From: Patescibacteria group bacterium
GTDB taxonomy: Bacteria; Patescibacteriota; JAHJAL01
Direction of reading: 5' to 3'
DNA length: 64,000 nucleotides
Assembly: GCA_041648895.1 (NCBI GenBank)
Contig: JBAZOB010000001.1
Coordinates: 15,093 to 79,092 of the forward strand
The notes beneath the pieces were generated by a model, which worked only from the letters and a program-made list of their open reading frames with translations, was not told where the DNA came from and did not search any database. Position numbers and translations under genes: made by a program. This document shows, one piece after another, positions 418-29,410 of the stretch; the first letter of the stretch is position 1, and every line of letters begins with the position of its first letter.

Positions 418-535
418 GTGTCATCCCCGCCTTGAGCGGGGACCTCATTATTAAGTTTTTGTAAACGCCTTGTTGATGAGATCCCCGATAGCCGGAGCTC
501 CGCCCTGGGCGGATTCCGGTCGGGGATGACATGAA
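418..535. repeat. GC-rich palindromic MITE/REP-like element, copy 1. Unit TGTCATCCCCGCCTTGAGCGGGGAYCTCAT plus inverted partner with an extra GC hairpin.
   Basis: Inverted repeats TGTCATCCCCGCC...GGCGGGGATGACA flank a spacer. The whole element is about 85% identical to the copy at 29294-29410. Confidence 0.8.
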
Positions 536-579
536 AGATAGTTAATTAGTAAAATTCATTATTTGTAATTCGTAATTTT

Positions 580-2421
580 TTACAAATTCCCGCGCATGGC
601 GATAATTTCCTCCGGGTTGGAGGTGATGAGACGGTGTTCGGTGTAGGAGGCAACGATTTTGATTAGAACGTGGTTGAGGCCGGCAAAGAAAATGCCTTCA
701 CCGACATTGGCTTCCAGCAGGGCCATTTTTTCACCGTCGGTCAGGTTAAATGTGCGGCCAATGAGGTCAATCGAGGCGGGGGATTGTTTGAGCAAAATCT
801 GCATGGCCGAGTTGGAGATCATGGCCTTGCCCCACTTGGAGCCCAAAAAGTCCTCCACGTCTTGGGAAATAGTGGTGACGCCCAGGTAGTATTTACGGGA
901 GCGTTTGGCCAGGTTGTGTAAGAAACGGGCGGAGTCTTCATATTGCATCAGGTTCCAGGCTTCGTCGATGACCATGATGCGGCGTTTTAACTGGGTGCGG
1001 ATTTTGGTCCAGATAAAGTTGGTGATAACGTACATGGCAATCGGGCGGAGTGATTCTTCCAGATCGCGCACGGAGAAGACAATGAAGTTGGCGGACAAGT
1101 CAATGTTGGTGGGGTTGTTTAAGAGGCCGGCGTAGGAACCTTCGGTGTATTTTTGCAAGCGCCGCGCCATGGATTCGGCGCCACTCATGTTCTCCAAGAC
1201 ATTGAATAAATCTTGCAATAGGGGCGGGGGATTTTTGTGAGAAGCCGCGTCTTCAGTAATGTCTTTGAGGGCGTAAGCTTCTTTGATGGCTTTGTCCATG
1301 ACGGCCGATTCTTCCGGAGTGAGTTGCCCGAGCATGATATTCATAATGCCGGAGATGGTGATAATGGCGGTGCGAAGAGCGTTTTCTTCTTCGCCGGCTT
1401 GGGTTTCGGGCAGTTCCAGGGGATTGATTTTACGGTCGGAATTGATGGAAATGGGGATATAGGTGCCGCCGACGGCTTCGCAGAGAGTTTGATATTCATT
1501 TTCCGGGTCGATGATAATGACGTTGGTACCCAGCATAAGATAGCGTAGGCATTCCAGTTTGACGGTGTAACTTTTACCGGCGCCGGAGGTGGCAAAAATG
1601 GTGCAGTTGGGATTGGGCAGGTCAAACCGATCAAAAATAATTAATGATTGATTGTGGCCGTTGAAGCCATAGAAAATACCGTTGTCGCTGGTTAGATCAA
1701 CCGAGGTGAAAGGAAAAGAAGTGGAAATGGCGTCGGTGTCCAGGTTACGGGTGATGTTTAATTCGTCGTTACCCAGGGGTAGGGTGCTGTTGAAACCGGG
1801 TTCTTGTTGGAGAATGGAATTTTTGGTGTAGATGAGAGAGCCGCCCAGGACAGTCTCCAGGTGGTCAATATTGGCTTTGAGTTCTTTTTCACTGTCGGCA
1901 TAGACGGTGAAATATAGTCCATAGAGAAATAGTTTTTCGCTGCCTTGTTGAATGCGATAACGCAATTCTTCGGCGTCCTGAATGGCGGTTTCCAGTTTGG
2001 GATCGGAAACTTCGCCTTTTTCGCGGCCAATGGCGTAGGTGGCCTGCATGCGCCCGACGCGATTGCGCAGGTCTTCCAGGACGGCTTTGGATTCCTGGGG
2101 GTAGATATACATGCTGATATCCATGGTGGCGTCGTAGGCAATGATCGGGGAAAGCCAGTTGGTGTTTAAAAAGCGGGGGTAGGTAAAAACAAACAGCGTC
2201 TGCACGTAGCTGTCGTTGATGATCAGATAGTTGGGGGTAATGCGAAAGGCGGAGGGAGCGACGATATCTTTGAGAGTGGTCATGCCTTCTTCAAAGACAC
2301 GTCGGGCTTCGGCCAGCCGTTTTTTTTCTTCTTCCAGCCGTTTCTTTTCTTCCATCGCGGCCACTTGAGCCGGATCAGTTGGCTTTTTTTTGAAAATGTT
2401 TATTTTGTCGAAAATGCTCAT
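580..2421 (-). CDS. virB4: VirB4/TrbE/CagE-family T4SS ATPase. This ORF carries the C-terminal ATPase portion, with the Walker A and B motifs.
   Basis: Walker A-like IFATSGAGKSYTVK and Walker B-like RRIMVIDEAWNLM. Overall TraC/VirB4 architecture; 613 aa. Confidence 0.8.
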   Translation of the reverse strand: MSIFDKINIFKKKPTDPAQVAAMEEKKRLEEEKKRLAEARRVFEEGMTTLKDIVAPSAFRITPNYLIINDSYVQTLFVFTYPRFLNTNWLSPIIAYDATMDISMYIYPQESKAVLEDLRNRVGRMQATYAIGREKGEVSDPKLETAIQDAEELRYRIQQGSEKLFLYGLYFTVYADSEKELKANIDHLETVLGGSLIYTKNSILQQEPGFNSTLPLGNDELNITRNLDTDAISTSFPFTSVDLTSDNGIFYGFNGHNQSLIIFDRFDLPNPNCTIFATSGAGKSYTVKLECLRYLMLGTNVIIIDPENEYQTLCEAVGGTYIPISINSDRKINPLELPETQAGEEENALRTAIITISGIMNIMLGQLTPEESAVMDKAIKEAYALKDITEDAASHKNPPPLLQDLFNVLENMSGAESMARRLQKYTEGSYAGLLNNPTNIDLSANFIVFSVRDLEESLRPIAMYVITNFIWTKIRTQLKRRIMVIDEAWNLMQYEDSARFLHNLAKRSRKYYLGVTTISQDVEDFLGSKWGKAMISNSAMQILLKQSPASIDLIGRTFNLTDGEKMALLEANVGEGIFFAGLNHVLIKIVASYTEHRLITSNPEEIIAMRGNL

Positions 2422-2440
2422 TGTTTATTTTTTATAATTA

Positions 2441-2508
2441 AAGGATCAAGTATCAAGGATCAAGTGCCAAGTGACTTGAAACTTGATCCTTGATACTTGA
2501 AACTTGAT
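2441..2508. repeat. ACTTGATCC/GGATCAAGT palindromic hairpin element with a 14-bp stem, lying between the two VirB4 halves.
   Basis: ATCAAGGATCAAGT ... ACTTGATCCTTGAT is a perfect inverted repeat. Related copies are at about 3226-3291 and 17803-17855. Confidence 0.75.
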
Positions 2509-2509
2509 G

Positions 2510-3241
2510 TTACTCTTCCTCCTGACTAAGGACACTGCCCACGATATCAGACGTGAGTGATTCAATTTTAAATAAACGTTGGTGGCGAGAGGTGAGGGGG
2601 TTGAAGTGAGCGTACATGAGTTCGGCAATTTCCTGGGTGGTGAGGGTGACGGCGCGTAGGCCCATGGAGCCAATACCATTGGAAATCAGGCCAATGCGTT
2701 CGTTGATTTTTTCTTTGGCTTGCTTGAATTCTTTGGCTTTAACTAATTGTTCATCTTGGCTGGGGAATAATTTTTGCCAAAAACCTTTGGCGGAAACATC
2801 GGGTGGATAGTAGGAAACGATGATAAAGAATTTTTTTTCCATGATGTTAGTAACTTGCAAGAGGCGCTGGATGAAGGAAATATATTCACTCATCTGCATG
2901 CGTAGCAGATCATTTTCTTGCTTGACTTCCAGGTCTTTGAGCTTGGCAATGTATTCGGATAGATCGAGTTTTTTGGATTGCACCACGATTTGGATGGGGA
3001 AGGGGAGGGAATTGAGAAAATTCTGATATTGATAGATAATGGCGTTTTGTTCCTGATCGGACTTCAGGTCAAAATTGATGGCGGAAGTCAGCAGCACACT
3101 GCGCAAGCTGCCATCTTTCATGATGACAAATCCATCGCGTATTTCCTGGAAAGGTAAATACTTTTGAGTGGAGCTTTTGGTGGTGTTTTTGGATTTTTTA
3201 AGTTTTGGTTTCACAATATTTATTAAAGGATCAAGTTCCAA
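2510..3241 (-). CDS. VirB4 N-terminal domain-like protein (CagE_TrbE_VirB region), apparently a separate ORF from the ATPase domain.
   Basis: QEIRDGFVIMKDGSLRSVLL...NFDL...SDQEQ resembles the start of the VirB4 N-terminal domain. 243 aa plus 613 aa is about full VirB4 length. The called start is TTG at 3241, inside the palindrome, so the start is uncertain. Confidence 0.45.
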   Translation of the reverse strand: MELDPLINIVKPKLKKSKNTTKSSTQKYLPFQEIRDGFVIMKDGSLRSVLLTSAINFDLKSDQEQNAIIYQYQNFLNSLPFPIQIVVQSKKLDLSEYIAKLKDLEVKQENDLLRMQMSEYISFIQRLLQVTNIMEKKFFIIVSYYPPDVSAKGFWQKLFPSQDEQLVKAKEFKQAKEKINERIGLISNGIGSMGLRAVTLTTQEIAELMYAHFNPLTSRHQRLFKIESLTSDIVGSVLSQEEE

Positions 3242-3291
3242 GGATCAAGTTTCAAGTCATTTGGCACTTGATTCTTGGTACTTGATACTTG
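3226..3291. repeat. ACTTGATCC-family palindromic element, copy 2.
   Basis: AAGGATCAAGTTCCAAGGATCAAGT...CACTTGATTCTTGGTACTTGATACTTG. It overlaps the putative TTG start of the upstream ORF. Confidence 0.65.
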
Positions 3292-9111: not shown

Positions 9112-9280
9112 AATTACAAATTAATGGGTTGTACTTATTAGTCATTTCCCCTGTCATCCCCGCCTTGAGCGGGGATCTCATATGTAACGCGTTTATTACA
9201 GTCTTGATGATGAGATCCCCGCTCAAGGCGGGGATGACATATAAAGAGATTAATTCAGACTACTCATTAATTTGTAATTT
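9112..9280. repeat. GC-rich palindromic MITE-like element, copy 2, with AATTACAAAT heptamer-repeat arms.
   Basis: AATTACAAATTAATGGGT ... TGTCATCCCCGCCTTGAGCGGGGATCTCAT - spacer - ATGAGATCCCCGCTCAAGGCGGGGATGACA ... ACTCATTAATTTGTAATT. The outer arms are also inverted repeats. Confidence 0.8.
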
Positions 9281-9322
9281 TATTTATCAATAAAAACAGT
9301 CTCCTGTTTTTAAGGAGACTGT
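9280..9322 (-). terminator. Rho-independent terminator downstream of pilin 9349..9693.
   Basis: ACAGTCTCCT-GTTTTTA-AGGAGACTGT forms a 10-bp stem. On the minus strand it is followed by a TTTTATT tract. Confidence 0.6.
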
Positions 9323-9348
9323 AATGAAAAATATGTGCTTATTTATTA

Positions 9349-9693
9349 CTACCCTCGTCGGATTTCATCAATAATGTAACTTACGATCAGGCTGGCAGAG
9401 ACGATCAGGATGAGGCCGATGACTGACCAGGTGATGGTACTGATGGCTTTTTTGGATTCTTCTGGATTGCCGGTGGCGGTGATGTATTTGTAGCCACCAA
9501 TGATGGCAAAAGCGACCGCAATTAGTCCGGACAGTACAGTGGCCACATTGATCAATGTGCCGAGAAAATCATAGATAGTCACATTTTCGTCCAGTGGATT
9601 GAGTTTTTTTAATTGATCAGCAAAATTGAGGGCAAGTATTGGCCACGGCGTTTGAGCAAGAAAATCGGCGAGCGAATTTATTGGTGGCAACAT
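9349..9693 (-). CDS. TrbC/VirB2-like T4SS pilin of the CPR-type T4SS_pilin family, paralog 1.
   Basis: Family motif IIGGYKYITATGNPEESKKAISTITWSVIGLILIVSA follows an N-terminal hydrophobic leader. Confidence 0.7.
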   Translation of the reverse strand: MLPPINSLADFLAQTPWPILALNFADQLKKLNPLDENVTIYDFLGTLINVATVLSGLIAVAFAIIGGYKYITATGNPEESKKAISTITWSVIGLILIVSASLIVSYIIDEIRRG

Positions 9694-9733
9694 GATATAA
9701 TATTACTTCTTAATTTGGCAGAGGGGCTTCGCG

Positions 9734-10114
9734 TTACTGATTCTCATCTACAACTGTATCTATTAGTTCTGTTCCGGGCAGAGCATTTTGAACTGTGACA
9801 ACAATGGCGTAGGCAGCAAAGATAACAACTAGACCAATAACGGCGTTGAGCAAGGTTTTGGTGGCTTTTTTATTTTGTTCTTCATTACCGCCGGCGGTAA
9901 TGTAGTTGAAACCGCCAATAATGAGGTAGATTACGGCTACCAAACCAGCGGCGCCCAGGATGTAGTTAATAACAGTGAAGGCAAATGTTTCTGCCGTGCC
10001 TTTGAAACCCATAAAAGTGCTGGTGGCGGTGGCGGCATTGGCAGCTAGTGTGCAGTAGACCATTGTATAGGCGGTCAAACCAGCGGCGCTGATTTTTTTG
10101 GCCAGTTTACTCAT
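9734..10114 (-). CDS. TrbC/VirB2-like T4SS pilin paralog 2.
   Basis: IIGGFNYITAGGNEEQNKKATKTLLNAVIGLVVIFAAYAIVVT, with a signal-peptide-like N-terminus. Confidence 0.7.
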   Translation of the reverse strand: MSKLAKKISAAGLTAYTMVYCTLAANAATATSTFMGFKGTAETFAFTVINYILGAAGLVAVIYLIIGGFNYITAGGNEEQNKKATKTLLNAVIGLVVIFAAYAIVVTVQNALPGTELIDTVVDENQ

Positions 10115-10150
10115 AGTTTTTACTCCAAAAAATTATTTAATAATTACAAA

Positions 10151-10528
10151 TTAAAAGGGCCAGGTGCTTGATTGATAGTTAATGGCGTTTTCGATGGAAA
10201 CTTTGATGGCATAGGCGGCGAAAACGACCAGGAGGCCAATGACGGCGAAGGTGAGGGTTTTGGTGGCTTTTTTGTGGGTTTCTTCGTTGCCGGCGGAGGT
10301 AATGTATTGAAACCCGCCGAGGATAATAAAGACAACGGAAACGAGGCCGGCGATACTCAGGGCGTAATTGATGATGGCCATTATCAGGTCGACAGCATTG
10401 TCAAAAGGTAGGGGATTGTCGGGGGTAACGACATTAATTTCCGGTGGGGCAGCCAATATTTTTGGTGGATGCCACATGACCAGGCTGGTAAAAATAAAAG
10501 ACAGGATTGTGTGGTTTATTTTTTTCAT
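10151..10528 (-). CDS. TrbC/VirB2-like T4SS pilin paralog 3.
   Basis: ILGGFQYITSAGNEETHKKATKTLTFAVIGLLVVFAAYAIKV, with a signal peptide. Confidence 0.7.
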   Translation of the reverse strand: MKKINHTILSFIFTSLVMWHPPKILAAPPEINVVTPDNPLPFDNAVDLIMAIINYALSIAGLVSVVFIILGGFQYITSAGNEETHKKATKTLTFAVIGLLVVFAAYAIKVSIENAINYQSSTWPF

Positions 10529-10614
10529 GAGGGAAATATTCGCTGGTCAATTATTAATATATTATGAATAATTACAAATTACAAATGGTATAGATGGTGT
10601 GTTAATTTCTGTTG

Positions 10615-10643
10615 TGTCATCCCCGCTCAAGGCGGGGATGACA
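10615..10643. repeat. Solo GC-rich palindrome TGTCATCCCCGCTCAAGGCGGGGATGACA, a half-unit of the MITE-like family.
   Basis: Perfect 12-bp inverted repeat between pilin genes. Confidence 0.8.
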
Positions 10644-10649
10644 AAGAAG

Positions 10650-10988
10650 TTATTGTTCAATTTCTAATACGAGTTTCAGCGTTTCCAAAATGGTAGCGGC
10701 GGCGAGGACGATGACAAAGCCAATGATGGCATTGGTGATAGATTTTTGTCCTTCTTTGATTTTTTCTTCGTTACCGCCGGAAGTGATATATTTGTAGCCG
10801 CCAAAAATCAGGTAGGCAATCATGATCAGGCCGGCAAAGTAGTAGGCCCAGGTGAAGAGAGCAAAAATTAACTCTTCGACCGAGGCAAAATTACTGAGGG
10901 GATTAAGGCGATCGGGGAGGAGACTTCTTAATTGTTGCATGATGTCATCAGCGGCGGTAAAGGTGATTGGTTTGAATATTTGGTTCAT
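10650..10988 (-). CDS. TrbC/VirB2-like T4SS pilin paralog 4.
   Basis: IFGGYKYITSGGNEEKIKEGQKSITNAIIGFVIVLAA. Confidence 0.7.
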   Translation of the reverse strand: MNQIFKPITFTAADDIMQQLRSLLPDRLNPLSNFASVEELIFALFTWAYYFAGLIMIAYLIFGGYKYITSGGNEEKIKEGQKSITNAIIGFVIVLAAATILETLKLVLEIEQ

Positions 10989-11055
10989 TATCGATAATTA
11001 ATTACAAATTACAAATTTAGTTTGCCATCCTGAATATTAATAATACTTATAGTCA

Positions 11056-11454
11056 TTAATAATTTACCCTATCTAAATCCACCGTGGTGATTTCTTGGAG
11101 GAAGGTTTGGACAATGAGGTAGGCGATGATGGCGACTACGAAGCCAATGATGGCCCAAGTCAGGGTGTTTTTGGCGGCGGTGGCTTGTTCTTGATTGCCT
11201 TTGCTGTAGATTAGTTTGATGCCTCCCCAAATAATAAATATGACGGCGACCAATCCGGCCAGACCGATCAAGTTACTACCGATATAGATAACAAAACGCA
11301 GAATGTCTTCAAATGTGATTTTTTGGGCTTCATGGCCGAAGTCGAAGCCGAATAATTTCAGATTGTCGGCGGCCAAAACTTTTTGGGGGAGGAATGTTAT
11401 TAACAACCCGATGGTGGAGGTAAATGGTAGGAGTTTTTTGGTGATATTTTTCAT
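11056..11454 (-). CDS. TrbC/VirB2-like T4SS pilin paralog 5. Start trimmed to the internal ATG (MKNITKK...) to remove the overlap with the upstream pilin.
   Basis: IWGGIKLIYSKGNQEQATAAKNTLTWAIIGFVVAIIAYLIV. The tracked ORF 11056..11532 overlaps the next gene by 74 nt. Confidence 0.6.
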   Translation of the reverse strand: MKNITKKLLPFTSTIGLLITFLPQKVLAADNLKLFGFDFGHEAQKITFEDILRFVIYIGSNLIGLAGLVAVIFIIWGGIKLIYSKGNQEQATAAKNTLTWAIIGFVVAIIAYLIVQTFLQEITTVDLDRVNY

Positions 11455-11458
11455 AAAA

Positions 11459-11839
11459 TTATTGTCCCACCCCGATCCAGGTTTGGATGGTGCTGATGAT
11501 AACGACGCCGGAAAGGGCAATGATAAAGCCAATGATGGCGTTGACGAGAGATTTTTTGCCTTGTTCGACTTGTTGTTCGTTGCCCTGGGCGGTGACTAAA
11601 AGGTAACCGCTGTAGATAATAAAGCCAATGGCGACAAAGCCGGCCAGGGAAAGCGCGAAGCCGATTATACGCAGAAGAATGGGAGCGAGCATTTCGAATA
11701 GATTACCGTCATAGTTAATATCAAGTCCACTGGTAAAATCTTTGATGTAGTCTCGGGCGAATACTTTTTGGGGGAGGGAGGAGATTAGAAGTCCGAGGGT
11801 TGATATTAGTTGTAGGGATTTTTTTTGGATAGACGGCAT
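11459..11839 (-). CDS. TrbC/VirB2-like T4SS pilin paralog 6.
   Basis: IYSGYLLVTAQGNEQQVEQGKKSLVNAIIGFIIALSGVVII, with a signal peptide ending SLPQKVFA. Confidence 0.65.
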   Translation of the reverse strand: MPSIQKKSLQLISTLGLLISSLPQKVFARDYIKDFTSGLDINYDGNLFEMLAPILLRIIGFALSLAGFVAIGFIIYSGYLLVTAQGNEQQVEQGKKSLVNAIIGFIIALSGVVIISTIQTWIGVGQ

Positions 11840-11890
11840 AAATTAAGAATGAAGAATTAGATACTACTGATGTTTGAGAAAAAAGATATT

Positions 11891-12292
11891 TTATAGTTCT
11901 AGACCATGTTCGATAATTTCGTGTCGATCGCGATTATCCGTTTCAACTGTGCTGCTGGTGGGGGCGGGGTTGTTGATGATTTGGGGGGAAATGATGCGGA
12001 GGACAGTGTAGGCAAGTACCAATAATGCCAGGGAGACGAGGGCGGAGATGATGGTGCCGCGGCCTTTGTTGATCATGTCGGGATTGCCCTGGGAAATAAT
12101 CATGGTGTAACCACCGATTACTATCATGATAATCGAAACAGCGGCGATAAGCCAGATGGCATAGATATAAAAATCACTGACATAATCGGCCAGAGAAGTG
12201 TAGTTGCTGGTGCTTTCATTGATGGGAGCGCGGACGTCAACGCTACCATCGACGGCCAGCCAAGTTAGACTTTGGTAGAGTAAATTGATCAT
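11891..12292 (-). CDS. TrbC/VirB2-like T4SS pilin paralog 7, divergent.
   Basis: IGGYTMIISQGNPDMINKGRGTIISALVSLALLVLAYTVL. The ATGA start/stop overlaps the upstream SBP gene. Confidence 0.55.
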   Translation of the reverse strand: MINLLYQSLTWLAVDGSVDVRAPINESTSNYTSLADYVSDFYIYAIWLIAAVSIIMIVIGGYTMIISQGNPDMINKGRGTIISALVSLALLVLAYTVLRIISPQIINNPAPTSSTVETDNRDRHEIIEHGLEL

Positions 12293-13626
12293 AATTGTTC
12301 TTCTTTGGCCTTGAGCATAATGTCGGAAATATCATTTTGAGCTTTATTGATGGCTTCTTCGGAGGGGATGTTGTTGATGGCCACGTCGTCAATCATTTGC
12401 GTAAAAATGGCGTCAACGCGGTTGGCGTCAATTTTATAGAAGGATTTGGCATAGTAGGCTTGTCTGTCGAAGATAATACTGGAGCTTTGGGCGGTGGATT
12501 TAAGTGAAGTTGGTTTTTTGGTGCGAGTGGTATATATGCCGTTTTCGGCGGTATATTTGAGGAAATCCCAGGCCCAAGCCGCGTTTTTACTTTGTAAACT
12601 AACCGTTTCTCCCCAATAGTTGGCGTAGCTTACCGGGTCGTCAGTGGTAAAAAGTTGGGGCAGGTTGGTGACTTCATAATGGACGTCGGGGTCTTTGAAT
12701 TTATCAATAATTGGTATTTGATAAGCATAGTTAATAGTCATGGCGCTAAGTCCTTTTTCGAAGGACTCAATTGAACCCAACATGGATGGATTCCAGGTGT
12801 AGTTGGTGTTGGCGGGATCGGCAAAACTGGTGTAGAAATCAAGTGAACTTTCACCCGGATAGAAATTTTCGCCGGTGGGAGTCTTGGTGGGTAGAGCAAA
12901 GGAAGAGGTGGTGTTGTCCGGTGAAGTCATGACAGTCCCATTTTGTAGCATCAGGGCGTATAAAATATCGGAGGCGCGGTTAATATTGTTGGCGGTGCCC
13001 ATGGTAATACCGGCCAGATCAACATTGTTGCCTTGTTTAACGGTTAAGGTTTGGGAGTATTCTTCGAGTTGTTCCCAGGTGGCGGGAGGGGAAAAATAAT
13101 TTTGATCTTTGAGTAACTCTTCATTGTAGAAAAGCGCCAAGGTATCTACATAGAGGGGAATAGCATAGGCTTTTTCCTGAAAAATGAAATCTTCGGCAGC
13201 GACCGGGACAAATGTTTCTTGGTATTTATCGACAGTCATGATTTCCTCGGGAATGGGGGAGATGATTTCCCAGTATTTGGGTAGCCAGTCATTATGAATT
13301 TGAAAAATGTCCGGTCCTTTGCCGGCGGCCAGGGCTTTAATCAGTTTTTCTTCGTAATTATTGAAATCAACTTTTTTGTACTCAATGTTGATGGTGGTGT
13401 TGGACTGTTTATCCCATAATTTACTATAAGCATCAATCGTAGTTTGCAAAGTTTCGCGATCATCAAAAAGCCGCCAGACGGTGAGGTTGACTTCGGTGGG
13501 GCAGGGTTTGGTGGGACAGAGTGGATCGGGGGGAGTGGTATTCTCTTGCTCACAACCGGAGAGAGTGGTGGCGGCGAGAAAAATGGTGAGAATTAATAGT
13601 TGGGGGAGTTTTTTTAGTTGGTTCAT
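12289..13626 (-). CDS. Extracellular solute-binding lipoprotein of the ABC sugar/oligosaccharide SBP family 1.
   Basis: Lipobox LSGC follows a hydrophobic leader. Length of about 445 aa, aromatic-rich, with the typical SBP_bac_1 profile. Confidence 0.6.
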   Translation of the reverse strand: MNQLKKLPQLLILTIFLAATTLSGCEQENTTPPDPLCPTKPCPTEVNLTVWRLFDDRETLQTTIDAYSKLWDKQSNTTINIEYKKVDFNNYEEKLIKALAAGKGPDIFQIHNDWLPKYWEIISPIPEEIMTVDKYQETFVPVAAEDFIFQEKAYAIPLYVDTLALFYNEELLKDQNYFSPPATWEQLEEYSQTLTVKQGNNVDLAGITMGTANNINRASDILYALMLQNGTVMTSPDNTTSSFALPTKTPTGENFYPGESSLDFYTSFADPANTNYTWNPSMLGSIESFEKGLSAMTINYAYQIPIIDKFKDPDVHYEVTNLPQLFTTDDPVSYANYWGETVSLQSKNAAWAWDFLKYTAENGIYTTRTKKPTSLKSTAQSSSIIFDRQAYYAKSFYKIDANRVDAIFTQMIDDVAINNIPSEEAINKAQNDISDIMLKAKEEQL

Positions 13627-14486
13627 TATATTTTTAACGATTTTAAATATTTAACAAAGTCTTTTCTCAGGTCAGGCCGGTCGAGGGCGAATTCGACGGT
13701 GGTTTGGAGGTAGTTGAGGGGGTCACCGGTGGTGTGCCATTTGCCTTTGATGGGAGTGGCGATGTAGGATTTGATTTGATTGTGAATACGCATGGCGTCA
13801 GGCAGATGAATTTCATTGTTGATACCCGGTTTGGTTTTAGCCAAGATGGAAAATATTTCCGGCTCCAGAACTAAACGGCCGATGCTGGCCAGGTTGGATG
13901 GAGCTTGGGCCGGGTCGGGTTTTTCAATGATGTCTTCGACAAAATAGATATCTTTTTCTTTTTTGCCTTTGATTATTCCATATTTATTAGTTTCATCATG
14001 AGGCACGGGGACGACGGCCAGGACGGAGGTTTGGTATTGCTCGTACAGTTCACAAATGTCACCGATGCAAGATTTTTTGGATTGGACGAGATCATCACCA
14101 TAGAGAACGGCGAACGGTTCGTTGCCCACAAAGGTGCGGGCTTGCAAGACGGCGTGACCGAGACCGAGGATTTCTTTTTGACGGATGTAGTGGATATTGG
14201 CTAGTTTTTCGATGCGCTGCAATTCTTTCAATAAACTTTCTTTACCTTTTTGTTTGAGGGTGTAGTTGAGTTCGAAAGACTGGTCAAAATGATCCTCAAT
14301 GGCTCTTTTACCGCGGCCGGTAATGATCAGAATTTCTTCAATACCGGCGTCAACGATTTCTTCGACAATATATTGAATAACCGGTTTATCGATCACCGGG
14401 ATCATTTCTTTGGGCATGGCTTTGGTGGCGGGCAGAAAACGAGTGCCAAAACCGGCGGCGGGGATGATGGCTTTTTTTATTTTCAT
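13626..14486 (-). CDS. galU: UTP--glucose-1-phosphate uridylyltransferase.
   Basis: N-terminal KAIIPAAGFGTRFLPATKAMPKEMIPVIDKPVIQYIVEE is the GalU signature. 286 aa. Confidence 0.85.
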   Translation of the reverse strand: MKIKKAIIPAAGFGTRFLPATKAMPKEMIPVIDKPVIQYIVEEIVDAGIEEILIITGRGKRAIEDHFDQSFELNYTLKQKGKESLLKELQRIEKLANIHYIRQKEILGLGHAVLQARTFVGNEPFAVLYGDDLVQSKKSCIGDICELYEQYQTSVLAVVPVPHDETNKYGIIKGKKEKDIYFVEDIIEKPDPAQAPSNLASIGRLVLEPEIFSILAKTKPGINNEIHLPDAMRIHNQIKSYIATPIKGKWHTTGDPLNYLQTTVEFALDRPDLRKDFVKYLKSLKI

Positions 14487-14489
14487 TGG

Positions 14490-14942
14490 TTAAAGGGTTT
14501 TGATTTTCAACGTTTTTGTTTGTACCGACTTGGCTTTGGGTACGCAAATGGTAAGCATGCCGTCTTTGAAAGTGGCGGCGGCATTTTCGGAATCGACGGA
14601 GGTGGGGAAGTTAATTTGGCGCGTGAAAGACCCCCAGTAACATTCTTGCAGGTGGTAGATTCGATCGTCCAGATCGGTGTCTTTTTGTCTTTTGCCGCGA
14701 ATGGCAATAAAATCGTCGTTGAGTTCAATTTCAATATCGTCGGCGACCACGCCGGCGGCGGGAGCGATAATGTAATAGCTATTATTTTTTTCGTACATGT
14801 CGACGATCAATTGTCCTTCTTCATCATCGTCTGATTGGTGATTGCTGGTCTGGTCGGATTTGAATTGGCTGGGATTCCAATTGGCGGAAAGTAGTTTTTG
14901 TAAGGTTTTTAGCGTACTTGATTTTTCTTCAGTCTGTTTCAT
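14490..14942 (-). CDS. Hsp20/alpha-crystallin family small heat-shock protein.
   Basis: Alpha-crystallin domain IAIRGKRQ...GSFTRQINFPTSVDSENAAATFKDGMLTICVPKAK. Confidence 0.75.
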   Translation of the reverse strand: MKQTEEKSSTLKTLQKLLSANWNPSQFKSDQTSNHQSDDDEEGQLIVDMYEKNNSYYIIAPAAGVVADDIEIELNDDFIAIRGKRQKDTDLDDRIYHLQECYWGSFTRQINFPTSVDSENAAATFKDGMLTICVPKAKSVQTKTLKIKTL

Positions 14943-15030
14943 ATTTGTGCCCTCTAATAAATATGATTGTTGAATTCATCTTTTATTATAATCGACAATG
15001 ATTAAATTGTTAAATGGATAAATAATATAT

Positions 15031-15212
15031 TACGAATTATGAATTAACGAGTGGTGTTAATTAATAACTTGATCCACCTACATATGTCATCCCCGCCTTG
15101 AGCGGGGATCTCATTATCAAGACTGCAATATATACGTTACATATGAGATCCCCGCTCAAGGCGGGGATGACAGATAAAGAGATTAATTCATATAACTCGT
15201 TAATTCGTAATT
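15031..15212. repeat. GC-rich palindromic MITE-like element, copy 3 in inverted orientation, with ACGAATTATGAATTAACGAGT arms.
   Basis: TGTCATCCCCGCCTTGAGCGGGGATCTCAT ... ATGAGATCCCCGCTCAAGGCGGGGATGACA. The spacer is the reverse complement of the copy-2 spacer. It lies in the divergent region between Hsp20 and the amidase gene. Confidence 0.8.
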
Positions 15213-15292
15213 TATTATTTATCCATTTACAAAATCATCAAATATTGATACAATATATAGATTTTACAATAAAACAAAAATATAAATTAGAT

Positions 15293-17802: not shown

Positions 17803-17855
17803 AAGTATCAAGTATTAAATACTTAATCCTTGATACTTGAAACTTGATCCTTGGA
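17803..17855. repeat. ACTTGATCC-family palindromic element, copy 3, downstream of the amidase gene.
   Basis: AGTATCAAGTATTAAATACTTAATCCTTGATACTTGAAACTTGATCCTTGG, a nested palindrome. Confidence 0.65.
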
Positions 17856-17883
17856 TAATAATTTGTAATTAAATTAATAACAA

Positions 17884-23028: not shown

Positions 23029-23589
23029 ATGAGATTATTTTCTAAAATTGGCAAAAGGAAACGACGGACGGGGCGGATGAAGCAGAAGTCCAGTTGGTTG
23101 GATGGTATTCTTAAGAAAGCCAAACGGACAAATAAACGGGTAATCAAGCGAACGGTGCGAGGGGGGAATGGGCCGGCGGTTAAATCTTTTTTTGACTACC
23201 GTACTTTTTTGCGGTCGCGGCTTTTTAATGTTTCATTGATGATAGTGGCTGGCTATATGATATTTTTGACGGGACGGGAGGCTTTGGCCAATTACTATCA
23301 GTCAAAACAAATTGCCAAGATTGAAACGGAAAATAAAACTATTGAACAGAAAAATGAGGAATTAAAGTATCTTTTGGAGTATTATAAGACTGAGACCTTT
23401 GCGGAATTGGAGGCCAGACGGTATTTGAATTTAAAAAAACCGGGAGAAAGTGTGGCGATTGTTCCAGTTGATATGAATGAGATGCCGGTTGATGAGGGAC
23501 AACAACCGCCAGAATTAAAAGCGCGACCCAATTATAAGAAGTGGATCGATTTTATTTTTGCCGATATTAGTTCACTGCCGGATAATTAA
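23029..23589 (+). CDS. FtsB/DivIC-like septum formation initiator.
   Basis: Single TM helix (VSLMIVAGYMIFLTG), then coiled-coil IETENKTIEQKNEELKYLLEYYKTETFAELEARRYLNLKKPGE, typical of the Septum_form family. Confidence 0.6.
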   Translation: MRLFSKIGKRKRRTGRMKQKSSWLDGILKKAKRTNKRVIKRTVRGGNGPAVKSFFDYRTFLRSRLFNVSLMIVAGYMIFLTGREALANYYQSKQIAKIETENKTIEQKNEELKYLLEYYKTETFAELEARRYLNLKKPGESVAIVPVDMNEMPVDEGQQPPELKARPNYKKWIDFIFADISSLPDN

Positions 23590-23816
23590 TTACAAATGAC
23601 AAATGGCAGATTACAAATCACGAATGACGAATTGAATTAGTCATATATCATTTATTTTAATTAATGGCAGCAAAAGTTTGGTCGGTGGTGTTAATATGGA
23701 TCTATTTAATAATAGTAAGTTTTATGGCTAGCCATATAATTAAAATAAATGATATATGACTAATTCAATTCGTCATTCGTGATTTGTAATCTGCCATTTG
23801 TCATTTGTAATTAATT
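23585..23816. repeat. Large palindromic element A, about 230 bp. Arms of about 50 bp carry AATTACAAATG heptamer periodicity and flank a conserved ~100-nt core that contains TATAAT.
   Basis: AATTACAAATGACAAATGGCAGATTACAAATCACGAATGACGAATTGAATTAGTCATATATCATTTATTTTAATTAA ... core ... exact reverse complement. The core is about 85% identical to element B at 32671-32867. Confidence 0.8.
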
Positions 23817-23819
23817 TAA

Positions 23820-23906
23820 GGAAGGGTGGGAGAGCGGTTTAATCCGCACGCTTGGAAAGCGTGTATGGCCGCAAGGTCATCGAGGGTTCAAATCCCTCCC
23901 CTTCCG
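23820..23906 (+). tRNA. tRNA-Ser (anticodon GGA), type II with a long variable arm; no encoded CCA.
   Basis: Hand fold: acceptor GGAAGGG/CCCTTCC, anticodon stem CACGC/GCGTG with loop TTGGAAA, T-arm GAGGG-TTCAAAT-CCCTC, long variable arm. Confidence 0.8.
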
Positions 23907-23960
23907 TTTATATAAAAGGGATGCGAAATTTACACCCCTCTTTCTTAAATCAATATCAAA

Positions 23961-23981
23961 GGGTGAATCCCTCCCCTTCCG
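23961..23981 (+). repeat. Duplicate of the tRNA-Ser 3' end (GGGTGAATCCCTCCCCTTCCG), about 55 bp downstream of the tRNA.
   Basis: 19 of 21 nt match the T-arm/acceptor 3' half of the adjacent tRNA. Confidence 0.6.
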
Positions 23982-24083
23982 TCTTCGACCGCCATAGCTT
24001 GAGCGACGGCGGGTTTTGTTATCATAATAATTGTTTTTTCAGGGGTGAGATTTTTTAGCGTATTCGTAATTCCTATTTTTTTT

Positions 24084-25370
24084 ATGAAAAAGCGTCATTT
24101 TCAAAACAAATTAATTGCTGAGTTATTGAGTAATTGTCAAAAGGTTCCGGCTCGCTGTCCGCATTTTTTGGATTGTGGTGGGTGTAGCTATCAGGATTTT
24201 ACCTATGGTGATCAAATTAAGGTTAAGGAAAAAAAATTAAAGGAACTGTTTGGTGATTTGACGGCTGATACAAATGTATCATTTCAGGGCGGGCAGGAGT
24301 ATGGTTACCGGACGCGGATGGATTATATTGTTTCCAGTCAGGGATTGGGCCTGCGGCGCAAGCGGCGTTTTGATCAAGTGGTGGATTTACATGAATGTCA
24401 TCTGATTGATCCGGCGATATTTGGTTTTTTAAGATCAATCTATGAAGAGGGGATAAAGATCGGATTAATACCGTATGATTTGCAGTCAAAAACGGGATTT
24501 TGGCGATATCTTTCGGTGCGGGTCAATGAGAAAAATGATTTTATGGTTATAGTCAATACGACCAGTGATGAGAAATTGTATCCCTTGGTGGATGAATTAA
24601 TTGAAAAAATTACAAATAATATTGTCGGGGCGGGTTTTTCCCGCCTGCAATTGTGTGAGAAAGGGCGGGAGAACCCCGCCCGTACGAAAGTGGGTAATTT
24701 AGTTTCAATATATCATCTGATCAATGATGGATTAAATGATGACAATTTTGGTGAGGTGAGGCGGTGGTGGGGGGAAGAATTTTTAAAATTTAAAATTTTA
24801 AATCCTGGATCCGTGTCCAGGACAAGCTTTAAATTTAAAATAGGGCCGAATACTTTTTTTCAAAATAGTATAGAATTGTTGAATGGTCTAATAACTAAAT
24901 TGGTCGGATATATTGATGCCGATGATCAAGTGTTGGATTTGTATTGCGGGGTGGGAACGTTGTCATTGCCGGTGGCCAAAAAAGCGAAGCAAGTTTTGGG
25001 GGTGGAATTGATGGCGGAGAGTATTGAGTTGGCGAAGTTAAATGCGATAGATAATGGTATAACCAATGTTGATTTTGTGGTGGGAGAGGTGGAAAAAATA
25101 ATTACGAATGACGAATTACGAATTAGGAATTATGATGCATTAGTTTTGGATCCGCCACGTAAAGGACTGGAAAAGGCAGCCAGTGAGATAATGGAAATGG
25201 ATTTACAGAAAATTGTGTATATGTCATGCAATCCACTGACTTTAAAGAAAGATCTGGAGGTTTTAACAAAAAAATATCGATTGGTGGAAGCAAGCTGGTG
25301 GGATCTTTACCCGCAGACACCACATGTGGAAGGTTTGTGTTTATTGGTGGGCGATGGTGTCGAACTCTAG
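24084..25370 (+). CDS. RNA (uracil-5)-methyltransferase of the RlmC/RlmD/TrmA family with an N-terminal Fe-S cysteine cluster.
   Basis: CPHFLDCGGCSYQD cluster. SAM motifs LDLYCGVGTLSLP, VLDPPRKGL and YMSCNP. Start set at the internal ATG (MKKRHF). The CDS carries in-frame repeat insertions. Confidence 0.7.
   Translation: MKKRHFQNKLIAELLSNCQKVPARCPHFLDCGGCSYQDFTYGDQIKVKEKKLKELFGDLTADTNVSFQGGQEYGYRTRMDYIVSSQGLGLRRKRRFDQVVDLHECHLIDPAIFGFLRSIYEEGIKIGLIPYDLQSKTGFWRYLSVRVNEKNDFMVIVNTTSDEKLYPLVDELIEKITNNIVGAGFSRLQLCEKGRENPARTKVGNLVSIYHLINDGLNDDNFGEVRRWWGEEFLKFKILNPGSVSRTSFKFKIGPNTFFQNSIELLNGLITKLVGYIDADDQVLDLYCGVGTLSLPVAKKAKQVLGVELMAESIELAKLNAIDNGITNVDFVVGEVEKIITNDELRIRNYDALVLDPPRKGLEKAASEIMEMDLQKIVYMSCNPLTLKKDLEVLTKKYRLVEASWWDLYPQTPHVEGLCLLVGDGVEL
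24637..24683. repeat. GC-rich twin hairpin (GGGGCGGGTTTTTCCCGCC / GGGCGGGAGAACCCCGCCC) inserted in frame inside the rlmC-like CDS.
   Basis: About 70% GC in a roughly 38% GC gene. It encodes GAGFSRLQLCEKGRENPAR. The motif AATTACAAATAAT lies immediately upstream, the same architecture as the MITE-like family. Confidence 0.7.
25095..25135. repeat. Heptanucleotide periodic repeat (ATTACGA ATGACGA ATTACGA ATTAGGA ATTATGA) in frame inside the rlmC-like CDS.
   Basis: Five or six imperfect 7-bp units identical in type to the MITE and palindrome arm motifs, translated as ITNDELRIRNYDA. Confidence 0.7.
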
Positions 25371-25964: not shown

Positions 25965-25986
25965 ATGTAATTATTATAAACCAAAT

Positions 25987-26775
25987 ATGAGAGGAAACAG
26001 CGATCGATTTTATATCAAAAAAGGATTGGGGGAAGATTTATTATTGATTAATGATTTTGGCTTGATTAAGCAATGGCGGCGGGTATTGCGGTTGAATGAG
26101 GGTGACGTGTTGCGGTTGTTTGATGGCAGTGGTTGGGAATATATTTACGAAATAATATTAGCCCATGGTAATGGTAGGGGCACGGTGCCCGTGCCCAAAA
26201 CCGCGGGGATAAATTTGCAATTAGTCAATAAAAGATATGTCAAAGAGACAAAGAATAAAATAATTTTGGGATTTGGTTTATTGAAAAATCATGAACGAAC
26301 CGAGTGGATAATCGAGAAATGTACGGAGTTGGGGGTAGATGAATTTCAACCATTAATTACCGAGTATTCGCAAATTAACATCTTTAAAAATCGGACCAGG
26401 TTGGAGAAAAAAATTGTTGAAGCCAGTGAGCAGTCCGGCCGGGTACGTTTACCAAAAATGAATGACGAATTACAAATGACGAATTATAAACCAAATGATC
26501 AAAATATTAATGTGTGCATGGATGTAGGGGCGACCCTCGCGGTCGCCCAGGGCGGGCGCCAGGCCCGCCCCTACAATAATGGTGGCGCCGGGGTTATCCC
26601 GCCCGATTTTACCGGTAATATTTTGTTATTGGTTGGTCCGGAAGGAGGCTGGAGCGAGACAGAAAGAAAATGGTTAAGCGATCAGAAATTTAAATTCTGG
26701 TCAATTAATAATAATATTCTCCGGGCCGAGACGGCGGCGGTGGTGGGCGTGGGGATTTTAAAATGTCACCTTTGA
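25987..26775 (+). CDS. rsmE: 16S rRNA (uracil1498-N3)-methyltransferase RsmE with an in-frame palindromic insertion.
   Basis: C-terminal LLLVGPEGGWSETE...ILRAETAAV is the RsmE signature. The roughly 50-aa insert KMNDELQMTNYKPND...GATLAVAQGGRQARPYNNGGAG is not typical of the family. Confidence 0.7.
   Translation: MRGNSDRFYIKKGLGEDLLLINDFGLIKQWRRVLRLNEGDVLRLFDGSGWEYIYEIILAHGNGRGTVPVPKTAGINLQLVNKRYVKETKNKIILGFGLLKNHERTEWIIEKCTELGVDEFQPLITEYSQINIFKNRTRLEKKIVEASEQSGRVRLPKMNDELQMTNYKPNDQNINVCMDVGATLAVAQGGRQARPYNNGGAGVIPPDFTGNILLLVGPEGGWSETERKWLSDQKFKFWSINNNILRAETAAVVGVGILKCHL
26455..26490. repeat. Heptanucleotide periodic repeat (AATGACG AATTACA AATGACG AATTATA) in frame inside rsmE.
   Basis: Same 7-bp motif class as the arms of the palindromic elements. 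Confidence 0.7.
26524..26574. repeat. Perfect nested GC-rich palindrome of 51 nt (17 codons) in frame inside rsmE.
   Basis: GTAGGGGCG[ACCCTCGCGGTCGCCC AGGGCGGGCGCCAGGCCCGCCC]CTAC has outer 9-bp inverted repeats and two inner 8-bp hairpins. About 80% GC. Confidence 0.8.
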
Positions 26776-26809
26776 GCAAAGGTGACATTTTTCATTTATT
26801 TATAATTTA

Positions 26810-27451: not shown

Positions 27452-27466
27452 ATTTCTAATTTGTAA

Positions 27467-29119
27467 TTATTTAAGGCTGTGTTTAATAAAATTAACAAAA
27501 AGTGGATGGGGGGCAAGGGGGCGGGATTTGTATTCGGGGTGAAATTGAACGCCGACAAAGAAGGGATGAATTTTATTGGATAGTTCGATGGCTTCGACTA
27601 GCTCGCCGTCGGGGGAGGTGCCGGCAATAATGAGACCGGCTTTTTCGAGTTGTTTGCGGTATTTATTATTGAATTCGTAGCGGTGGCGGTGTCTTTCACT
27701 GACAATGTATTGGTTGGTGGCTGATTTATCAGTTGAATATTTAAGATATGATTCGGCTAGTTTAGTTTTGGGTTGAAGCACGCAGGGATAGGCGCCGAGG
27801 CGAATAGTGCCGCCGTACTGATGTTTGGCGAGATATTCTTTTTGACGGGGCATAATGTGAATGACGGGATATTTGGTTTGAGAATTAACTTCTTCGCTGT
27901 TGGCTTGGTCGAGCCGGCAAACATGACGGGCAAATTCAATCACGGCCATTTGCATACCGAAACAAAGTCCTAAAAATGGTATTTTTTTCTCCCGCAGGTA
28001 TCTGATAGCGGCAATTTTGCCTTCCACGCCGCGTGATCCCCAGCCTTGCGGGATGATGACGCCATCAAAATCGGCTAATTTTTTGACGTTGGCGGGATTT
28101 TTTTCAAAATCGGCCGAATTAATCCAGGTAAATTCCGGTTGTACCTGGTTGGCCCAGGCGCCGTGTTTGACAGCTTCGATAACTGATATATACGAATCAG
28201 ATAAGGTAAAGTTGCCAATGTCGAAATATTTCCCTACCATGGCGATTTTGACTGTTTTTTTGATGCCGTCAATTTTCTTGATCAGATTGTGCCAGGTGGA
28301 AAATTCATTTTTTTTCGGTTGAAGATTTAGTTTTTTGATAATTTTGTCATCCAGTTGTTGATCTTTGAATATACCGGGAATGCGGTAGATAGTATCGACG
28401 TTGGGGTTGGAGATGATGTTTTCGACGTCGATACTGCAGTTGCGAGCCAAGGTGGCGCGGCGCGGTTCGTCCATATAGGTGTCGGCGCGGCCGATGATGA
28501 AATCAGGCATGACGCCGGAGCTCATCAGGGTGCGGACGGAGGTTTGAACGGGTTTAGATTTCATTTCGCCCAGGAAAGAAGGGATAGGAAGATAGCCAAC
28601 ATGGACATGAATGACGTCGTTTTTGTGGCGGTATTTCATGATACGGTTGGCTTCAATAAATAATATATTTTGATATTCACCGACGGTGCCACCAATTTCA
28701 ATGAGTACTACCTCAGCTTTACTAACCCGGCCGGCTTCTTCAAAGCGGCGGATCATTTCCTCGGGGACATGGGGCACAATTTCCACGTCTTCGCCTTCAT
28801 ATTCAAAAGCTCTTTCTTTGCGAATAATTTCTTGATAGACCATGCCATTGGTGAGGTAGTTGGCACGTTTTAGATCGCTGTTTATAAATCTCTCATAGTT
28901 GCCAATGTCCTGGTCGCATTCTAGGCCGTCGTCGGTAACAAAAACTTCGCCGTGTTCCTGTGGGCGGATGGTGCCGGCGTCGACGTTCATGTAGGCGTCG
29001 CATTTGACGCAAGTAACGCGGATGCCTTTGGATTTTAGTAGTAGAGCAATGGAAGCGGTGGTAATTCCTTTTCCTAAACCCGAAATTACCCCACCGGAGA
29101 CAAATATGTATTTGGTCAT
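27467..29119 (-). CDS. pyrG: CTP synthase.
   Basis: MTKYIFVSGGVISGLGKGITTASIALLL at the N-terminus. The C-terminal glutamine amidotransferase domain has GLCFGMQ and the HRHRYE motif region. The start is moved to the ATG matching the canonical MTKYIF N-terminus; the tracked ORF uses an upstream TTG. Confidence 0.85.
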   Translation of the reverse strand: MTKYIFVSGGVISGLGKGITTASIALLLKSKGIRVTCVKCDAYMNVDAGTIRPQEHGEVFVTDDGLECDQDIGNYERFINSDLKRANYLTNGMVYQEIIRKERAFEYEGEDVEIVPHVPEEMIRRFEEAGRVSKAEVVLIEIGGTVGEYQNILFIEANRIMKYRHKNDVIHVHVGYLPIPSFLGEMKSKPVQTSVRTLMSSGVMPDFIIGRADTYMDEPRRATLARNCSIDVENIISNPNVDTIYRIPGIFKDQQLDDKIIKKLNLQPKKNEFSTWHNLIKKIDGIKKTVKIAMVGKYFDIGNFTLSDSYISVIEAVKHGAWANQVQPEFTWINSADFEKNPANVKKLADFDGVIIPQGWGSRGVEGKIAAIRYLREKKIPFLGLCFGMQMAVIEFARHVCRLDQANSEEVNSQTKYPVIHIMPRQKEYLAKHQYGGTIRLGAYPCVLQPKTKLAESYLKYSTDKSATNQYIVSERHRHRYEFNNKYRKQLEKAGLIIAGTSPDGELVEAIELSNKIHPFFVGVQFHPEYKSRPLAPHPLFVNFIKHSLK

Positions 29120-29293
29120 GAAGTGTTTTAATTTGTACAAGATAATATTGTAACGTTAATGAACAAAAGTCGGAAGTGAAATCAATATAATATTAATTTA
29201 ATCTCGAGGTTATTTTTTATTAATCAGGTATTTGATAATATTGATATGGACTTAATTAATGAGTAGTGTGAATTAATAATATGATCTACTTGG

Positions 29294-29410
29294 ATGAGAT
29301 CCCCGCCTTGAGCGGGGATGACATCATCAAGTTTATTATAAACGCCTTATTGATGAGATCCCCGATAACCGGAGCGCTCCGCTATGCTCCGCTTCCGGTC
29401 GGGGATGACA
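29294..29410. repeat. GC-rich palindromic MITE-like element, copy 4, closely related to copy 1.
   Basis: ATGAGATCCCCGCCTTGAGCGGGGATGACA ... GATCCCCGATAACCGGAGCGCTCCGCTATGCTCCGCTTCCGGTCGGGGATGACA, in the divergent pyrG/dnaG region. Confidence 0.8.

Follow-up and report, generated by a model that had tools for sequence, protein, structure and literature searches.

Probable Ssn-type hairpin repeats in mosaic intergenic elements of a Patescibacteria genome

The window analysed here, a 64-kb stretch of DNA (64,000 nucleotides) from a metagenome-assembled genome (MAG) of a Patescibacteria group bacterium, encodes a VirB4/TraG-like ATPase, a PrgI-like protein, two TrbL/VirB6-like proteins and six paralogues of type IV secretion system (T4SS) pilins, as well as Hsp20, cell-wall hydrolases, PyrG, DnaG and RpoD. 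All within its first 30 kb, in intergenic and AT-rich surroundings, lie five copies of a palindromic hairpin element, which are the subject of this report. An earlier note on this DNA had listed the five copies and likened them to miniature inverted-repeat transposable elements (MITEs) of the Correia or Rickettsia palindromic element (RPE) kind. The five sites exist, far above chance: the core TCATCCCCGCCTTGAGCGGGGAT, allowing up to three mismatches, was matched seven times in the window, against 0.00 expected from 100 dinucleotide-preserving shuffles, and the units, spacers and outer inverted arms were all recovered by a repeat finder. Altogether, the window contains eight hairpin units and one solo hairpin. 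The doublets, three inverted and one direct, are arranged around a conserved spacer of 27-28 nt in elements of about 110-210 nt.

The core unit is an oriented hairpin of 30 nt, (T)GTC-ATCCCCGC-CTTGA-GCGGGGAT-C-TCAT. GTCAT is found 5' of the palindrome in every unit of the window, and a C directly 3' of it in eight of the nine; the solo hairpin of copy 3 (10615-10643) has a G at this position on both strands. All nine fold as single-stranded DNA, with energies of -9 to -19.8 kcal/mol (z -3.1 to -8.5). Among 79 short units with a CTTGA/TCAAG loop, 73 are canonical and polarity is otherwise strict; copy 3 and the left unit of copy 5 represent rare rearranged forms, the form of the latter being unique in this set.

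Hairpins of a comparable format are known from Neisseria, where the repeat called NTS (28 nt, CGTCATTCCCGCGMAVGCGGGAATCYRG), which includes the dRS3 repeat, forms the structure CGTC-ATTCCCGC-loop-GCGGGAAT-C (Chenal et al., Nat Commun 2025, PMC11893778). It is bound, solely as single-stranded DNA, by SsnA, a 94-aa GIY-YIG nuclease that cuts a few nucleotides upstream, and the SsnA-NTS pair modulates natural transformation (PMC11893778). The three bases 5' of the palindrome matter for cleavage and the C 3' of it is the most critical base for binding; loop identity is irrelevant, and the enzyme is inactive on RNA (PMC11893778). The ssn genes are typically flanked by ‘Ssn-related motifs’ (SRM), which were summarised in a hand-made string derived from 29 genomes of four phyla (PMC11893778).

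The palindrome of the window, ATCCCCGC/GCGGGGAT, differs from that of the Neisseria NTS, ATTCCCGC/GCGGGAAT, by one compensated stem pair (T-A to C-G). The oriented hairpin of about 28-30 nt, the GTC(A/T) 5' of the palindrome and the C 3' of it are retained, whereas the loop, CTTGA, has 5 nt in the window unit. A detector of the form ‘GTC + 7-bp palindrome arms + C’ returned 14 sites in the window, compared with 6.4 in shuffles; eight of these sites correspond to eight of the nine units, and the solo hairpin of copy 3 gave no match in this SRM format. Further features shared with SRM-Ssn pairs are the many copies and the unit-gene-unit bracketing of a single-domain GIY-YIG gene of about 95-100 aa. 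The differences are the host, a Patescibacteria MAG (the Candidate Phyla Radiation (CPR)/Patescibacteria are unmentioned in the main text of PMC11893778), the prevalence of doublets with a conserved spacer inside conserved arms, the expanded variants with nested hairpins and the absence of a literal match to the published degenerate string. Other resources yielded little: Rfam at gathering thresholds had no match at the elements, IMG/VR gave no match that would have pointed to a viral origin, and literature searches with the exact core sequence, with GIY-YIG combined with palindromic, hairpin or selfish repeats, with YhbQ and with repetitive extragenic palindromic returned nothing relevant. 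A scan of a genome collection with the loose pattern ATCCCCGCYYWRRGCGGGGAT produced, among the matches listed, mostly unrelated terminator-like hairpins, with an extra TC flank in more than half of them.

The gene association became apparent in metagenomic sequences, where the pattern ATGAGATCCCCG-N(7-37)-CGGGGATGACA identified at least 114 loci (loci are designated here by L and a number). Among the matches listed, many originate from unrelated organisms with 30-64% GC, and their stems exhibit compensatory changes beside the fixed part, as C-G, G-C or A-T. A profile made from three small open reading frames (ORFs) lying between inverted units was searched against 215 loci and the window, and revealed at least 19 small single-domain GIY-YIG ORFs in the 215 loci, with PF01541 confirmed. 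Correctly oriented ‘GTC + palindrome + C’ hairpins occur on both sides of 13 of these 19, as against 33 of the 4054 control ORFs from the same loci. Homologues picked by protein similarity alone, from Thermodesulfovibrio, Curtissbacteria, Melioribacter, Sedimentibacter and a deltaproteobacterium, are all bracketed by hairpins as judged by eye, with (T)GTCAT-stem-loop-stem-ATCTC upstream and (G)AGAT-stem-loop-stem-ATGAC(A) downstream; the stems are lineage-specific, often contain tandem G·A mismatches and are missed by the strict detector. In one locus, L143, a unit (780-809) is followed by a gene for a 98-aa GIY-YIG protein (886-1182, MFA4930325.1) and then by a doublet (1197-1325). A second ssn paralogue, in L107 of the same MAG, is flanked by hairpins of other types, ending ATCCAG / CTGGAT.

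The attribution of these loci to the genome of the window is based on protein accessions and repeats. PyrG of the window (annotated with 550 aa) is identical to the CTP synthase MFA4930270.1 [Patescibacteria group bacterium] on a contig of 135,224 bp (ENA ERZ27247363 k141_1703301), of which the window represents about 39.1-103.1 kb. Proteins of the window have the numbers MFA4930258, MFA4930270 and MFA4930295, and those of five further element-bearing contigs MFA4930514, MFA4930699, MFA4930825, MFA4931203 and MFA4931221, all from ‘Patescibacteria group bacterium’; the numbers climb as the contigs get shorter. Among the matches listed, most unit-matching loci are contigs of one metagenome, Ga0265297, with GC content and skew like those of the window. 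From the accession order and the shared repeats we infer that the window, L143 and the other element-bearing contigs belong to one MAG. The nuclease is 55 accession numbers away from PyrG, which agrees with the number of genes remaining on the 135-kb contig plus a few at the start of the next one.

The elements are multicopy. At least 58 more, with 103 units, were found in 377 kb of other contigs of this MAG (43 doublets, 14 singlets and one triplet), and the idea that they might be unique to this locus is thereby refuted. The MAG contigs and the window (441 kb in total, from a genome of roughly 1 Mb) carry about 111 hairpins.

Judged by its sequence, the 30-nt hairpin core is of the NTS/SRM class, which small GIY-YIG Ssn nucleases recognise: the functional determinants (GTC, C) and the gene association are both present, though the test with the literal SRM string failed. 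The elements are a further example of a kind already described in 2025, not a new kind of element. We consider it probable, at roughly 0.75, that the five loci belong, as non-autonomous copies, to a mosaic family of NTS/SRM-type palindromic repeats in a CPR genome, with an Ssn gene of cognate type in the same MAG. This interpretation draws on the sequence format, the copy number, the association with GIY-YIG genes, the mosaicism of modules and one empty orthologous site.

A number of observations weigh against it. The published SRM string, HGTCWYN(0-2)YYVSBRHN(0-5)WNVSBRGN(0-2)RNCYNB, has no exact match in the window; with one substitution it matches one of the nine units (419-448), with a background of three per shuffle, and the units miss it at the first loop base (R vs C/T) and at the last base (B vs A). 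The most stable single-strand fold of an inverted doublet is one long hairpin in which the units pair mutually (-54 kcal/mol, z -13.6); in the direct doublet of copy 5, two local hairpins form inside an arm stem. The same profile search revealed no ssn gene in the 64-kb window, and the link to the GIY-YIG gene rests on the MAG membership deduced above, in which binning errors are possible. The small GIY-YIG proteins have no specific NCBIfam model and no relative in the PDB by sequence; their family is established at the level of Pfam PF01541, the Ssn clade being defined by CDD cd10448. Neither a target-site duplication nor an excision footprint was found at the arm ends or in one filled/empty pair, and the arms also carry unrelated cores, hence the composite may be moved by something besides Ssn. 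Binding and cleavage by a CPR Ssn, mobilisation in trans and a biological role are all presumed.

The individual copies differ in their layout. Copy 1 starts with a short, truncated and AT-rich left arm (397..418), which is without the AAYGAGTTGTG arm motif present in other copies. It is followed by a plus-strand unit, TGTCAT-CCCCGC-CTTGA-GCGGGG-ACCTCAT (419..448), of SRM/NTS type with one mismatch (GGGGAC) and GTC…C on the plus strand, by a 27-nt spacer (449..475) homologous to that of copy 5, by an expanded 56-nt unit, ATGAGAT-CCCCGA…nested hairpin…TCGGGG-ATGACA (476..531), with SRM orientation on the minus strand and a fold of -19.8 kcal/mol, and by a right arm (532..577) composed of TGAAAGATAGTTAATTAGTAAAATTCAT and TTTGTAATTCGTAATT heptamers. 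Copy 2 is made up of a left arm of variant v1 (9112..9151; heptamer AATTACAAATTA and ATGGGTTGTACTTATTAGTCATTTCCCC), a canonical unit, TGTCATCCCCGCCTTGAGCGGGGATCTCAT, on the plus strand (9152..9181), the 28-nt spacer ATGTAACGCGTTTATTACAGTCTTGATG (9182..9209), a second canonical unit on the minus strand (9210..9239) and a right arm of variant v3 with a TTTGTAATT heptamer (9240..9280). Copy 3 is the solo hairpin TGTCAT-CCCCGC-TCAAG-GCGGGG-ATGACA (10615..10643), with symmetric flanks and -15.1 kcal/mol, beside a one-sided heptamer or arm-like stretch (10549..10614, AATTATGAATAATTACAAATTACAAATGG…); it begins 6 nt past the stop codon of the pilin gene 10650..10988(-).

Copy 4 resembles copy 2 in its order of modules, with a left arm of variant v4 (15025..15084, ATTACGAATTATGAATTAACGAGTGGTGTTAATTAATAACTTGATCCACCTACATA), canonical units on the plus (15085..15114) and minus (15143..15172) strands, a 28-nt spacer between them (15115..15142) that is the reverse complement of the copy 2 spacer, and a right arm of variant v3 with TTAATTCGTAATTT heptamers (15173..15222), 92% identical to the right arm of copy 2. 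Copy 5 comprises a v5-like left arm (29254..29293, TTAATTAATGAGTAGTGTGAATTAATAATATGATCTACTTGG), a left unit ATGAGAT-CCCCGC-CTTGA-GCGGGG-ATGACAT (29294..29324), the 28-nt spacer CATCAAGTTTATTATAAACGCCTTATTG (29325..29352), homologous to the spacer of copy 1, an expanded unit on the minus strand with a 45-nt hairpin and a nested CCGGAGCGCTCCG…CCGG (29353..29410), and a right arm of variant v2 (29411..29462, TGAGGGATAGTTAATTAGCACAATTCATTAATTAATGAATAATTAATAATT). Its left unit has swapped flanks, with SRM orientation on the minus strand and a loop flipped relative to the canonical form, so that the two units of this copy are direct and not inverted. The expanded second units of copies 1 and 5 share a 43-45-nt hairpin with a nested stem; eleven 45-nt units besides that of copy 5 were found across the MAG loci and the window.

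Several details of the initial description had to be adjusted accordingly. A unit and its inverted partner around a 28-nt spacer, attributed to all copies, are present at 9112-9280 and 15025-15222 but not in the other three. The arms are present but reach further than had been given, to about 577 in copy 1 and over 29254-29462 in copy 5. The reverse-complement spacers of copies 2 and 4 (9182-9209 vs 15115-15142) are real, but they had been taken to mean that whole elements lie in opposite orientations, whereas the right arms are more similar when compared in direct orientation (92%); it is thus the core that is flipped relative to the arms, and not the whole element that is inverted.

Anchoring on units, we analysed the arms of 40 doublets. 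Each side consists of variable AT-rich heptamers (AATTACR, AATGACR, AATTAGG), a conserved arm motif, AAYGAGTTGTGYKAATTA, and one of about six inner variants; within copies, complementarity between the arms is 76-81%. The modules are freely combined as regards arm variant, spacer orientation and hairpin size (17, 35, 43-45 and 56 nt); where the arms are v1/v2, a core of short unit, spacer and long unit is found both ways round. Other cores between these arms are a solo symmetric hairpin, a doublet belonging to a different SRM type and an AT-rich palindromic core that is unrelated. The motif AAYGAGTTGTGYKAATTA is common to 30 arm pairs in the 441 kb, all of them 86-212 nt apart; an autonomous copy was therefore not seen, nor, among these 30 pairs, a longer one combining the arms with a transposase. 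The AATTACR/AATGACR heptamers noticed earlier are real and inverted at the element ends, but they are not specific to the elements, since they occur generally between the genes of this genome and even inside some of them.

In E. coli, bacterial interspersed mosaic elements (BIMEs) are clusters of repetitive extragenic palindromic (REP) sequences with fixed inter-REP motifs. The elements described here resemble BIMEs and the NIMEs of Neisseria (PMC11893778) in that hairpin repeats are joined with a few short modules in variable order and orientation and are intergenic; they differ in that the module sequences are unrelated and that the outer modules are AT-rich arms ending in heptamers.

Evidence for the absence of an element at an orthologous position, which the earlier note had proposed to look for in related strains, comes from a relative with an 85% identical PyrG. 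It has the same divergent dnaG/pyrG layout and the same upstream ATTTGATAATATTGATA motif, and contains an 87-nt heptamer-repeat palindrome only, where the window has an element of about 210 nt. The pyrG/dnaG site is an insertion/absence polymorphism, and the comparison suggests that heptamer palindromes were present at such sites before the elements. The arm ends grade into variable heptamer repeats and the filled/empty comparison has no clean junction. No orthologous sites were found among the metagenome loci, because those contigs belong to the same genome. The same strain has also been assembled independently; that assembly matches window 9228-15111 at 100% identity, and both of its ends fall exactly inside hairpins. 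As a separate matter, we considered the 28-nt spacer as a deletion remnant of an ssn gene and rejected this, since it has no convincing similarity to the sequence beside the ssn-flanking hairpins in L143.

Should the elements act as their Neisseria counterparts, DNA would have to become single-stranded, for example on the lagging strand or as incoming or recombining DNA, whereupon an inverted doublet would offer one correctly oriented hairpin per strand. The cognate Ssn would bind this hairpin and nick upstream of it, and, as in Neisseria, nicking would modulate what becomes of the single-stranded DNA (recombination or integration). Ssn might also drive the spread and reshuffling of units, in analogy to REP sequences and their REP-associated tyrosine transposases (RAYT). 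A bolder and rather doubtful version would make Ssn and its hairpins a true system of mobile elements, the GIY-YIG equivalent of RAYT/REPIN or of the IS200/IS605 ‘peel and paste’ mode, in which Ssn would mobilise inverted doublets, as the non-autonomous replicating unit, into the centres of pre-existing AT-rich heptamer palindromes in either orientation. If this were true, the Ssn system would shape intergenic DNA and gate incoming single-stranded DNA in tiny, DNA-uptake-dependent CPR genomes.

Other origins have to be weighed against the assignment to the NTS/SRM class, and each of them, be it a MITE, REP/RAYT, a purely RNA-level role or CRISPR, is less well supported. A classical Correia/RPE-like MITE would be a deletion derivative of an insertion sequence, whose DDE-type transposase acts on the inverted AAYGAGTTGTGYKAATTA arms, the GC-rich hairpins being cargo. 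Inverted-repeat arms common to about 30 element pairs and enclosing different cores would fit this, as would the size of 86-212 nt, the intergenic location and the empty orthologous site. The elements do share with Correia and Rickettsia palindromic elements that they are small, palindromic, multicopy and mostly intergenic, and the description as a dispersed non-autonomous palindromic family (intergenic and multicopy) stands. The likeness to Correia/RPE elements with terminal inverted repeats is not supported: neither a TA nor any other target duplication is definable, the arm ends grading into variable heptamers; no transposase was found in the window, and in the 377 kb of MAG contigs plus the window no arm pair is more than 212 nt apart and none encloses a transposase; no integration host factor (IHF) or promoter features were detected; the GC core is of the SRM class; and the core flips relative to the arms, which is unexpected for a rigid cut-and-paste unit. 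We regard this origin as unlikely. REP sequences mobilised as REPINs by RAYT, an IS200/IS605-like Y1 HUH transposase, would likewise appear as two inverted hairpin repeats with a short spacer, clustered in mosaic elements, and in both systems it is the inverted doublet that replicates, and repeats flank the gene of the associated nuclease. However, the gene between inverted units encodes a GIY-YIG protein (PF01541) instead of a Y1 HUH transposase, and the conserved 5' flank is GTCAT, the GTAG tetranucleotide being absent, which makes this explanation highly improbable.

A primary role at the RNA level, as terminator, 3'-end stabiliser or small RNA, similar to the effect of REP sequences on mRNA decay, could be read from the stability of the hairpins, from the start of copy 3 at 6 nt after the pilin stop codon and from the location of elements between genes of one operon-like cluster. 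Yet no U-tract follows the hairpins, no terminator-like site exists inside the three element regions scanned, units are found on either strand whatever the direction of the genes, and copies 4 and 5 are upstream of divergent promoters, where transcription as 3' ends would not be expected. The lack of an Rfam match and the inactivity of SsnA on RNA (PMC11893778) also speak against it; as the primary function it appears quite improbable, and it may coexist as a side effect. Degenerate or orphan mini-arrays of clustered regularly interspaced short palindromic repeats (CRISPR) would have in their favour the 30-nt unit with a palindromic centre, like that of type I-E repeats, and spacers of about 28 nt. 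That the unit is CRISPR-repeat-like but not arrayed had been recognised from the outset, and this is confirmed: the spacers are homologous between copies, an element has at most two units (three in one copy), mostly inverted, and the window contains no arrays and no cas genes or domains. Spacer homology and unit orientation leave this origin with next to no probability.

The suggestion that the elements carry promoters or terminators was not borne out in the three element regions scanned. The best sigma-70-like promoters are located just outside the elements, at 9045-9016 (-) and 15013-14985 (-), both 11/12, and at 15226-15254 (+), 10/12, as is the sole intrinsic terminator (9322-9296, -). Weak promoter matches inside copy 5 are no better than in shuffles, and no convincing signal was found within the elements, which occupy neutral gaps between transcription signals.

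The assignment to the NTS/SRM class places the Ssn/hairpin-repeat system in the Candidate Phyla Radiation, a new phylum for it, and with about 111 hairpins in 441 kb it represents one of the main repeat classes of its host genome. The architecture goes beyond the features discussed in PMC11893778, and the novelty is modest; the mosaic of doublets, arms and heptamers, the core inversions, the expanded hairpins and the empty site provide material on the question of hairpin spread, which the 2025 paper left open. In practical terms, the hairpins break short-read assemblies exactly within themselves, and these repeats may be mistaken for CRISPR-like or MITE-like features.

Some additional observations concern the surroundings of ssn genes. 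L107 (4555-4990) and L112 (2267-2451) of the same MAG hold the second ssn paralogue, flanked by the hairpin types GTCATCCTGAA… and …TTTGGGATGAC, and a third-type doublet, ATCCTGGA…, located between the same arms. The loops of the long variants share a GGAGCGCT(A/C)CGCTTCC motif. In several lineages, the 3' half of the hairpin together with the ATGAC flank occurs in tandem beside ssn genes, with a period of about 23 nt (…CCCTCGGAATGACA repeated), as in L216 (both sides of 1001-1309), L149, L210, L043, L095 and L143 (1326-1348). The main text of the Ssn paper does not mention this pattern, which might be a trace of the copying mechanism. In three unrelated contigs (L117 93-126, L118 7111-7144 and L137 1639-1672), a unit is localised within an ORF for an apparent C-terminal sorting domain of the type IX secretion system (T9SS), …NPFNPVTKIRFDV-MRSPTGTFGDDK-LVVIKVFDVRGREV…, which suggests that units are able to sit in frame inside genes.

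Heptamers are also found within coding sequences of the window. AATTACG/AATGACG heptamers are in frame at 25100-25132 in a gene for a TrmA-like methyltransferase (24045..25370), inside the PF05958 match, and heptamers occur likewise at 26461-26490 in a gene for an RsmE-like methyltransferase (25987..26775), inside PF04452; the proteins gain about 10-11 residues from them, such as IITNDELRIRNY. A second type of heptamer palindrome (AAGGATC/ACTTGAT), with no GC core, is present at 2437-2506, 3222-3291 and 17819-17862, in gaps between T4SS-like cluster genes and downstream of the amidase gene. A second family of palindromic elements has copies at 23584-23816 and 32672-32868, and more in the same MAG (L178, L140, L180, L106, L120 and L206). 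The copy at 23584-23816 has perfectly complementary arms of 80 nt, a heptamer start and a 73-nt centre, and lies directly beside a tRNA gene (23820-23906). At approximately 23960-23983, some 55 nt past this tRNA gene, a partial repeat of the tRNA 3' end (…gaatccctccccttccg…) may be the remnant of an integration site.

GC skew is strongly positive (0.10-0.46) in every 2-kb bin of the window (1-64000), despite the minus-strand genes in 0.5-15 kb. Most of the second half of the window is taken by a low-GC island (34210-56000, with 31-39% vs 40-48% GC), in which no hairpin unit occurs. It includes a tRNA overlapped by a serine recombinase gene (34245..35768), genes for a SNF2 helicase, a DUF4391 protein, a DNA methylase and a type III restriction endonuclease (36131-45219), and a DUF3800 gene accompanied by a DUF3800-IX RNA (53703-53772). 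The DUF3800 gene and the RNA motif are bracketed by an 83-nt direct repeat with 84% identity (52952-53034 and 53811-53893).

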